NCBI RefSeq assembly: GCF_054482525.1
Contig: NZ_CM137006.1
DNA length: 64,000 nt
Direction: 5' to 3' (one strand)
In this document: positions 24,964 through 59,186 of the stretch, piece by piece
Position numbering within the stretch: the first letter of the stretch is position 1
How the letters are laid out: each line of letters begins with the position of its first letter
Notes under the pieces: generated by a model
Told to the model about the DNA's origin: nothing
What the model saw: only the letters and a program-made list of their open reading frames with translations
Databases searched by the model: none
Translations under genes and position numbers: made by a program

Positions 24964-24996
24964 AAAAAAACCGCCAGCGTTTCCGCTGGCGGTTTT
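24964..24996. terminator. Hairpin terminator downstream of ybfA
   Basis: ccgccagcg...cgctggcgg stem flanked by A/T runs. Confidence 0.5.
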
Positions 24997-33303: not shown

Positions 33304-33313
33304 GGCCTGAATT

Positions 33314-33413
<100 letters not shown>

Positions 33414-50881: not shown

Positions 50882-50890
50882 GAAATGCGA

Positions 50891-50920
50891 AACAGCCCCG
50901 GTGAAATCCGGGGCTGTTTC
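50891..50920 (+). terminator. asnB rho-independent terminator
   Basis: aacagccccggtgaaatccggggctgttt. Confidence 0.6.
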
Positions 50921-52053: not shown

Positions 52054-52087
52054 CGGATGCGACGCTGCCGCGTCTTATCCGACCTAC
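52054..52087. repeat. REP element
   Basis: cggatgcgacgctgccgcgtcttatccgacctac. Confidence 0.7.
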
Positions 52088-57512: not shown

Positions 57513-59054
57513 ATGGCTTTTGCCTCATTAATTGAACGCCAGCGCATTCGCCTGCTGCTGGCGTTATTATTCGGTGCCTGCGGAACGCTGGCCTTCTCTC
57601 CTTACGACGTCTGGCCTGCGGCGATTATTTCGCTGATGGGGCTTCAGGCGCTGACCTTTAACCGCCGTCCACTCCAGTCTGCCGCTATTGGCTTTTGCTG
57701 GGGATTTGGCCTCTTTGGCAGCGGTATTAACTGGGTCTATGTCAGCATCGCGACTTTTGGCGGAATGCCTGGCCCGGTTAACATCTTCCTGGTGGTGCTG
57801 CTGGCGGCGTATTTGTCGCTGTATACCGGACTGTTTGCTGGCGTGCTGTCGCGTCTGTGGCCGAAAACCACCTGGCTGCGCGTGGCGATTGCCGCCCCTG
57901 CTCTCTGGCAAGTGACCGAGTTTCTGCGCGGTTGGGTGCTGACCGGCTTCCCGTGGTTACAATTCGGCTATAGCCAGATTGATGGCCCGTTAAAAGGGCT
58001 GGCACCGATAATGGGCGTGGAAGCCATTAACTTCCTGCTGATGATGGTTAGTGGCCTGCTGGCACTGGCGTTGGTCAAACGCAACTGGCGTCCGCTGGTA
58101 GTGGCCGTCGTGCTGTTTGCCCTTCCCTTCCCGCTGCGTTACATCCAGTGGTTTACCCCGCAACCGGAGAAAAACATTCAGGTTTCGATGGTTCAGGGCG
58201 ATATTCCGCAATCACTGAAATGGGACGAAGGCCAGCTTCTTAATACGCTGAAGATTTACTACAACGCAACGGCACCGCTGATGGGCAAATCATCGTTGAT
58301 TATCTGGCCGGAGTCGGCGATAACCGATCTGGAAATTAATCAGCAACCGTTCCTCAAAGCACTGGACGGTGAGTTGCGTGATAAAGGTAGCTCGCTGGTC
58401 ACCGGGATTGTCGACGCGCGTCTCAATAAGCAGAACCGCTACGATACCTACAACACCATCATCACGCTGGGTAAAGGTGCACCGTACAGCTACGAATCAG
58501 CCGATCGCTATAACAAAAACCATCTGGTGCCATTTGGCGAGTTTGTCCCGCTGGAGTCGATTCTGCGTCCGTTAGCGCCGTTCTTTGATCTGCCGATGTC
58601 GTCGTTCAGCCGTGGGCCATATATCCAGCCACCGCTGTCGGTAAACGGTATTGAGCTTACTGCGGCTATTTGCTACGAGATCATACTTGGCGAGCAAGTG
58701 CGTGATAACTTCCGCCCGGATACCGATTATCTGCTGACTATCTCCAACGATGCGTGGTTTGGTAAATCTATTGGTCCATGGCAGCACTTCCAGATGGCGC
58801 GAATGCGTGCGCTGGAGTTGGCTCGCCCACTGCTGCGTAGCACCAACAACGGCATTACGGCGGTGATTGGTCCGCAGGGTGAGATTCAGGCGATGATCCC
58901 GCAATTCACCCGCGAGGTGTTAACCACTAACGTGACGCCGACCACCGGACTCACACCGTACGCACGTACCGGCAACTGGCCGCTGTGGGTACTGACGGCA
59001 TTGTTTGGTTTTGCCGCCGTGTTGATGAGTCTGCGTCAGCGACGTAAACGTTGA
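57513..59054 (+). CDS. lnt: Apolipoprotein N-acyltransferase
   Basis: 513-aa track [35 protein letters not shown]... Confidence 0.95.
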
Positions 59055-59069
59055 TGTGAATGATGCGCT

Positions 59070-59100
59070 GGCCTGCAAAATTGCATCAATTTTGCAGGCC
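59070..59100. repeat. Perfect 13-bp-arm inverted repeat (ggcctgcaaaatt-gcatc-aattttgcaggcc) between convergent lnt and the rhomboid gene
   Basis: Read from the sequence; no adjacent U-tract. Confidence 0.5.
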
Positions 59101-59186
59101 AGATAAACCGTTCACACCGCATCCGGTATCAACAAAACGTACTTCCTCATTGAGCTGTGGGGCGTGATTATCATGCCCCTTTTTTC

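Follow-up and report, generated by a model that had tools for sequence, protein, structure and literature searches.

Organization of the lnt/rhomboid gene spacer

In the window, by which is meant the whole 64-kb stretch of DNA that was analyzed, lnt and a rhomboid-family gene are convergent and are separated by a short spacer; the sequence of the window is identical to that of E. coli PCN033. The rhomboid gene (59187-61064, minus strand) is located between lnt and gltI and encodes a protein of 625 aa combining a rhomboid protease with a beta-propeller (Pfam Rhomboid and Lactonase/YncE-like matches). The gene occupies a syntenic position in Klebsiella aerogenes and other enterobacteria, with 49-57% identity. 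The features assigned to the spacer are collected in Table 1.

Table 1. Features of the spacer between lnt and the convergent rhomboid gene, with positions in the window.
Feature	Position	Strand	Basis and remarks
lnt stop codon TGA	59052..59054	+	ORF 57513..59054
Left (Z1-type) REP head remnant / left BIME end, GTGAATGATGCG	59056..59067	+	Alignments; exact TGATGCGCT match to the Z1 REP of the BIME-1 at 33310-33412
Palindrome left arm, CTGGCCTGCAAAATTG	59068..59083	+	REP foot GGCC, complement of the GTAG box (CTGC, not CTAC; 59073-59076) and first linker bases
Loop, CAT	59084..59086		With flanking AAAATTG / CAATTTT, forms the 17-nt collapsed BIME-1 'L' linker
Palindrome right arm, CAATTTTGCAGGCCAG	59087..59102	+	Linker end, GTAG box (GCAG, 59094-59097) and Y-type REP foot
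Degenerate Y-type REP, GCAGGCCAGATAAACCGTTCACACCGCATCCGGT	59094..59127	+	32/38 identity, tail included, to canonical Y REP 33314-33352; own stem mostly lost
BIME outer flank, ATCAACAAAAC	59128..59138	+	Compare ATGAACAA in the short allele and beside BIME-1 copies elsewhere
lnt intrinsic terminator: 9-bp GC-rich stem, 3-nt loop, T6	59159..59185	+	In every rhomboid-bearing allele; outside the BIME
Stop codon of the convergent rhomboid-family / beta-propeller gene (59187-61064)	59187..59189	-	ORF

The initial annotation had placed ggcctgcaaaatt-gcatc-aattttgcaggcc at 59070-59100 and described it as a perfect palindrome with 13-bp arms. Coordinates, letters and perfect symmetry were reproduced, but the arms returned by a repeat finder are longer, at 16 nt each with 100% complementarity, and enclose a loop of 3 nt. 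The distance to the lnt stop, previously given as 16 bp, is 15 nt when measured to position 59070 and 13 nt when measured to the base of the stem, while the distance of about 85 bp to the rhomboid stop holds (84 nt from the stem). No perfect hairpin-type repeat in the window is longer than the palindrome, the runners-up having 13-nt arms. From base composition, the expected number of such repeats was only ~1.7e-4 (about 0.0002) per 64 kb, and a chance origin was rejected on this basis. Fold energies of the RNA were -26.6 kcal/mol for the plus strand and -25.8 kcal/mol for the minus strand (z ~ -6 vs. shuffled sequences). A search of 58000-62000 on both strands with the Rfam 15 covariance models gave no match at E ≤ 1. 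The other perfect hairpins with 13-nt arms are found at 18006-18036, 24967-24996 and 50889-50920; among these, CCTGATAAAACGC/GCGTTTTATCAGG looks REP-related, and AAAACCGCCAGCG/CGCTGGCGGTTTT and GAAACAGCCCCGG/CCGGGGCTGTTTC look like bidirectional terminators.

The palindrome is followed by AUAAACCG on the plus strand and by CGCAUCAU on the minus strand, and a U-run is present on neither, as had been stated earlier. A textbook intrinsic terminator was found on the plus strand 57 nt 3' of the palindrome, in which GGGGCGTGATTATCATGCCCC (59159-59179) is followed by TTTTTT (59180-59185); the terminator scan reported only 59159-59179 and an intragenic site. The lnt transcripts presumably end at this terminator (59159-59185), which places the hairpin within the lnt 3' UTR. 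The terminator abuts the rhomboid stop codon, and on the minus strand its hairpin is followed by ACAGCUC, with no U-tract. Judged by its sequence, the lnt terminator seems to be unidirectional and the E. coli rhomboid gene seems to have no intrinsic terminator, so that rhomboid transcripts probably run into the repeat remnant described below. Neither a minus-strand terminator nor a promoter-like site was found in 58800-59400.

Homology to REP and BIME-1 elements

A BIME-1 consists of two opposed REPs with an IHF-binding spacer (PMC2817692). The window contains a textbook copy at 33310-33412, with a Y REP, an L linker carrying the IHF-like ATTCAATATATTG (33360-33372) and an inverted Z1 REP, and this copy was used as the internal reference for REP comparisons. 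A single REP-like unit is also located at about 52055-52087.

To the right of the palindrome, positions 59090-59127 were identical to the canonical Y REP and tail of the reference copy at 32 of 38 positions (84%), an alignment score that was reached by none of 2000 shuffles. Using sensitive blastn, a 58-nt match (82.8%, E=2e-6) was obtained to the linker and Y REP of a BIME-1 from a different E. coli locus. This match spans the loop and the inner left arm of the palindrome, and additional independent matches were obtained to Y REPs elsewhere in E. coli. To the left, the flank GTGAATGATGCGCT represents a Z1-type REP head, corresponding to GTGCCTGATGCG (GTGCCTGATGCGCT) in sister alleles, and the B-type allele continues from there through an entire Z1 REP. 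In the multiple alignment, which included four BIME-1 copies, the palindrome fell at the junction of linker and REP foot. Because REP matches are present on both flanks and the multiple alignment agrees, 59056-59138 can be read from its sequence as a BIME-1 that has lost the interior of Z1 and the middle of the L linker.

Both units are reduced. The Z1 unit comprises the head TGATGCGCT and the foot GGCCTGC, with ~10 fewer internal nucleotides than in the B allele, and the linker measures 17 nt vs. ~35 nt in canonical BIME-1. The Y unit persists in degenerate form: the stem part GGCG/CGCC is mutated to ACCG/CACC, and in the fold of 59095-59135 (minus strand) another small hairpin was predicted and the REP stem was not formed. 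The GTAG box, which is reported to be essential for binding and cleavage by TnpA-REP, the REP transposase (PMC3479197), reads GCAG on one arm and is matched by CTGC on the opposite arm. The Y REP remnant is extragenic, lying between the stops of lnt (59054) and the rhomboid gene (59187) and upstream of the lnt terminator.

In intact enterobacterial BIMEs, the REP feet and linker ends form an inverted repeat of ~12 nt, GGCCTACAAAAT ... ATTTTGTAGGCC, whose halves are ~25 nt apart. A BIME of Pseudocitrobacter, GGCCTACAAAATTGC-(20 nt)-ATTTTGTAGGCC, has the architecture of a natural precursor. In the window the spacer between the feet is only 7 nt, and the feet therefore fold as a single 16-bp hairpin. 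The palindrome was also considered as a separate repeat family, and this was ruled out: only 7 stretches in a set of 100,044 species genomes fitted the pattern GGCCTRCAAAAT-N(0-30)-ATTTTGYAGGCC, of which 6 were in unrelated taxa and 1 was a normal Pseudocitrobacter BIME, so the palindrome does not constitute a family of its own. It is an atypical derivative of the known REP/BIME family.

The linker bears directly on whether the palindrome is a protein-binding site, as had been proposed in the initial annotation. A palindromic operator, or another site bound by a transcription factor, IHF or gyrase, would be expected to show the perfect dyad symmetry observed here; IHF binds to BIME-1 linkers, and gyrase and Pol I to BIMEs (PMC2817692). 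However, the IHF-like motif ATTCAAYATATTG (WATCAANNNNTTR), which occurs in both the canonical BIME-1 (33360-33372) and the B allele, was not found in 59040-59140 even when 1 mismatch was allowed. Gyrase binding has been described for multi-unit BIME-2 and atypical BIMEs (PMC2817692), unlike the single remnant pair in the window. The site lies at the 3' ends of convergent genes with no promoter-like site nearby (58800-59400), and its sequence is missing from 96% of E. coli and is mutating in its carriers. A binding site of this kind is very improbable, and that part of the earlier proposal is unsupported.

Allelic variation at the lnt 3' end

Alleles at the lnt 3' end were counted in 5426 complete E. 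coli genomes, and four common alleles mark this site as a hotspot of REP/BIME polymorphism. The palindrome allele was present in 192 genomes (~3.5%), as one copy each and always at the lnt 3' end. An allele of the strain B type, a BIME-1 derivative comprising a Z1 REP, the full L linker and a truncated Y REP, was present in 788. At least 1698 genomes carried a short allele, GTGCCTGATGT/ATCCGGCATGAAC, which consists of just the two outer BIME ends and has no hairpin. The remaining common type is that of K-12, from which the rhomboid gene is absent (2185 genomes). Relative to the short allele, the palindrome segment is a 57-bp insertion. The B-type allele is still recognizable as a BIME-1 (84 aligned columns to the canonical Z1-L-Y arrangement), and its REP begins 3 nt past the lnt stop codon. 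The BIME core had a median of 15 to 40 or more matching places per genome, vs. one for the diverged palindrome unit at the megablast level. No second copy of the exact unit was found in any E. coli genome, phage or plasmid searched.

The lnt gene of the window encodes 513 aa and ends in ...LRQRRKR (3' end 59031-59054). The product ends in ...LRQRRK in K-12 (512 aa) and in ...LRARKR with the B and short alleles (512 aa). From these sequences, the 3' end of lnt in the window looks chimeric between the two haplotypes, switching exactly in the last codons, which suggests a recombination breakpoint at the end of the gene.

Among the 192 carriers, the perfect 55-bp stretch was matched exactly in 47 and its A59089T version exactly in 44, and the remaining carriers were 1-3 bases off the perfect stretch. 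In all 5 variant carriers that were sequenced, the changes in the arms were one-sided and broke or weakened pairs (one changed G-C to G-U). No compensatory pair changes were found in these 5, with up to three changes in one strain (right arm), and their hairpins had fold energies of -21 to -23 kcal/mol. Since the A at 59089 is the canonical BIME state (ATTTTG), the perfect form is probably ancestral and now decaying, this polarity being deduced from the reference copies. In E. coli HS-02 (NZ_CP172818.1, 677266-677519), three bases of the right arm are substituted, on that side only. The sequence departs from that of other carriers ~20 nt past the BIME (TACTTTCTCATTACTTCGG), and lnt has no annotated rhomboid gene beside it, which may represent a secondary deletion of this gene within the palindrome-bearing lineage.

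Outside Escherichia, two enterobacterial relatives (one of them Klebsiella aerogenes) have the same gene order, gltI-rhomboid-lnt-corC. Their lnt/rhomboid spacer is 31-36 nt long and contains a single terminator hairpin and no REP; in Klebsiella aerogenes this hairpin has U-tracts on both strands. The REP material therefore entered within Escherichia, and the hairpin is not ancestral to the convergent-gene layout.

These distributions bear on the suggestion that the palindrome is a bidirectional attenuator or an RNA-stabilizing hairpin. According to this explanation, the site would have been selected as an attenuator or terminator insulating the convergent lnt and rhomboid genes. Its location between them, the high stability of the hairpin on both strands (-26.6 and -25.8 kcal/mol), and rhomboid transcripts with no obvious intrinsic terminator of their own are all compatible with such a role, and REPs have been reported to facilitate Rho-dependent termination (PMC2817692). 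On the other hand, neither strand of the palindrome has a U-tract, the terminator scan reported nothing at this position, and the plus strand is already served by the canonical terminator 57 nt further on. The same gene pair carries the hairpin-free short allele in at least 1698 genomes, and uncompensated, pair-breaking mutations on one side of the stem build up in the carriers. The suggestion thus fits the REP/BIME class to which the element belongs, but not a conserved device, given a hairpin present in 192 of 5426 genomes and altered in most carriers by one-sided, pair-breaking mutations. A selected attenuator was judged improbable.

Comparison with K-12 and IS5

The initial annotation had also raised the possibility that IS5 lies near lnt in K-12 and that the palindrome marks its insertion. 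An IS5 is indeed present: in K-12 MG1655, IS5D (insH3) lies between gltI and lnt. Its flanks align to 61274-61419 and 61412-61566 of the window and overlap on the 8 bases 61412-61419, which identifies these as the insertion point, upstream of gltI. This is 2.3 kb from the palindrome, which consequently does not mark the insertion. K-12 lacks the entire stretch 59049-61273, palindrome included, and has ~154 bp of its own sequence, with a REP-like stretch, in place of 2.2 kb. Comparison with the K-12 lnt downstream region therefore showed the palindrome to be unrelated to IS5D. The state of K-12 looks like a deletion, because the rhomboid gene is syntenic in other enterobacteria and absent from K-12-type E. 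coli. K-12 (L007, 4760-4840) has a hairpin of its own, GTGCCGGAATACATCCCATATTTCGGCAC, directly after the lnt stop, together with the REP-like CACCGGATGCGGCATCAGTGCATTATCCGG; neither carries a repeat annotation in the RefSeq record.

More generally, the palindrome could be the scar or target of a mobile element, i.e. the K-12 IS5 site, a MITE, or a segment derived from a prophage or plasmid. The presence of IS5D in the gltI-lnt interval of K-12 and the 57-bp insertion by which the segment differs from the short allele would agree with this, but the mapping of the IS5D flanks and the absence of 59049-61273 from K-12 do not. Phages gave no match, and matches in the plasmid collection were confined to the generic Y REP, in records of 0.37-4.9 Mb. 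Only one copy is present per genome, and no target-site duplication is evident, the flanks being the BIME's own ends. An origin as a mobile-element scar or target is extremely improbable. The plasmid records matching the REP part, among the matches listed, were typed non-mobilizable, and with sizes of 0.37-4.9 Mb they look like chromosomes, chromosome fragments or megaplasmid-sized records.

Origin of the palindrome

Taken together, the palindrome is probably the foot-to-foot junction of a decayed BIME-1-type repeat, dispensable and drifting, and not a selected regulatory site. The anatomy of the BIME remnant appears directly in the alignments, and from this we infer the manner of its origin. 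In the simplest scenario, a BIME-1 located between the lnt stop and the terminator would have been the starting point, with different internal deletions then arising in different lineages. In the lineage of the window, loss of the mid-linker, including the IHF-like site, and of most of the left REP would have joined the feet as a 16-bp hairpin with a 3-nt loop. The deletion was probably aided by hairpin-templated 'perfecting', i.e. template switching, which is suggested because the two arms share non-consensus bases (GCAG for GTAG; CTGG/CCAG).

The departures from the REP consensus are paired in the stem, at G59075-C59095 (canonical A-T in CTAC/GTAG) and at T59069-A59101. This symmetry suggests that the sequence of one arm was templated by the other through a template switch during replication. 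For quasipalindromes, such switching has been documented in E. coli (PMC7202029), and a role in keeping inverted repeats perfect was proposed for it (PMC5941160). Symmetric departures in the arms could also have arisen through selection for pairing, and strong selection of this type is disfavored because the later decay is one-sided. Substitutions in the flanks (CC to AA at 59059-60, C to T at 59127, and G to C at 59130) were considered as templated and rejected, as reverting all of them changed the energy by +0.1 kcal/mol; the energy is barely altered because the REP heads pair instead. No template-switch intermediate was found, and we infer the mechanism from the arms. An uncollapsed BIME-1 at lnt was likewise not found, with 0 of 5426 genomes reaching 80% coverage of the reconstructed ancestor, which leaves a common ancestry of the three derivative alleles putative.

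Predicted RNA-level activity

If the remnant has an activity, it is most likely passive and exerted at the RNA level. In PMC12306157, REPs are described as barriers to 3' exonucleases that stabilize upstream mRNA (summarizing Newbury 1987), and genes are reported to be translated less when a REP follows their stop codon by less than 16 nt (Liang et al. 2015). By analogy, a hairpin of -26 kcal/mol would be predicted to block 3'-to-5' exonucleases, and would act in the lnt 3' UTR and in transcripts reading through from the rhomboid gene. Ribosomes terminating at the lnt UGA may in addition be stalled by the stem, whose base lies 13 nt further on, with a possible modest effect on Lnt synthesis. 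Any such effect appears to be dispensable, because the population data show the hairpin to be missing from most E. coli genomes.

In its stronger form, the latter effect would amount to a stop-proximal translational brake on lnt. A ribosome would meet the hairpin 13 nt past the UGA, and stalling, mRNA cleavage or tmRNA tagging would lower Lnt. Such a brake is compatible with the decayed-BIME explanation, since it concerns function only. The position of the stem base would suit it, as would the REP of the B-type allele at 3 nt past the stop. However, the published effect concerns canonical REPs, and nothing comparable is present at this position in the short allele or the outgroups. Any brake would therefore be lineage-specific and evidently not required, and a strong brake would be unlikely because Lnt is essential. 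The brake was considered rather unlikely overall. We are more doubtful still of a combined scenario, in which an unusually strong, stop-proximal hairpin, made by template switching at a BIME-1 junction together with its paired GTAG-to-GCAG change, tunes Lnt synthesis and/or the 3' end of the rhomboid mRNA in the 3.5% sub-lineage; if this template-switch tuning were true, repeat decay would have been converted into a lineage-specific post-transcriptional element.

With the decayed BIME-1 as the preferred explanation, a conspicuous palindrome is accounted for as a REP/BIME derivative, which matters little beyond correct annotation and leaves the current understanding of REPs unchanged. The carriers provide a natural series for the collapse of a BIME and for the rise and decay of a long hairpin, from the perfect form to forms with 1, 2 and 3 one-sided mismatches, and this series also bears on stop-proximal hairpins and essential-gene expression.

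Comparison with known systems

An intrinsic terminator likewise has a hairpin with GC-rich pairs downstream of a stop codon, but the palindrome has no U-tract on either strand. It resembles a quasipalindrome perfected by template switching in that its arms share departures from the consensus at paired positions, and differs in that the intermediate was not found and that the flank substitutions add no stability. REPINs are also composed of two inverted REP-derived sequences with a short spacer that are predicted to form a single long hairpin. They are, however, doublets mobilized by RAYTs and present as multi-copy replicating populations (PMC3116915, PMC8049555), whereas the palindrome is single, locus-bound and decaying, with one REP truncated and its GTAG boxes mutated.

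The similarity to a Y-type REP, or palindromic unit (PU), is closer, comprising the 84% identity with the tail included, the extragenic position, and the ability to form RNA hairpins. The hairpin of the window is nevertheless made from the feet of two REPs and not from the imperfect stem-loop of a single REP, and the GTAG is mutated. BIME-1 elements (RIB/RIP; Y REP - L linker - Z1 REP) differ from the palindrome in having a linker of ~35 nt, not 17 nt, with an IHF-like motif. In the palindrome allele, only the head is left of the Z1 REP, the stem of the Y REP is lost and the boxes read GCAG; the 16-bp perfect hairpin is not present in the intact copies compared here, and the variant is single-copy. 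With BIME-1 it nonetheless shares opposed REP-derived units placed foot to foot, in an extragenic position at the 3' end of a transcription unit, and homology to canonical copies is seen both in its outer ends (TG..TGATGCG ... CGCATCCGG.AT.AACAA) and in its Y REP.
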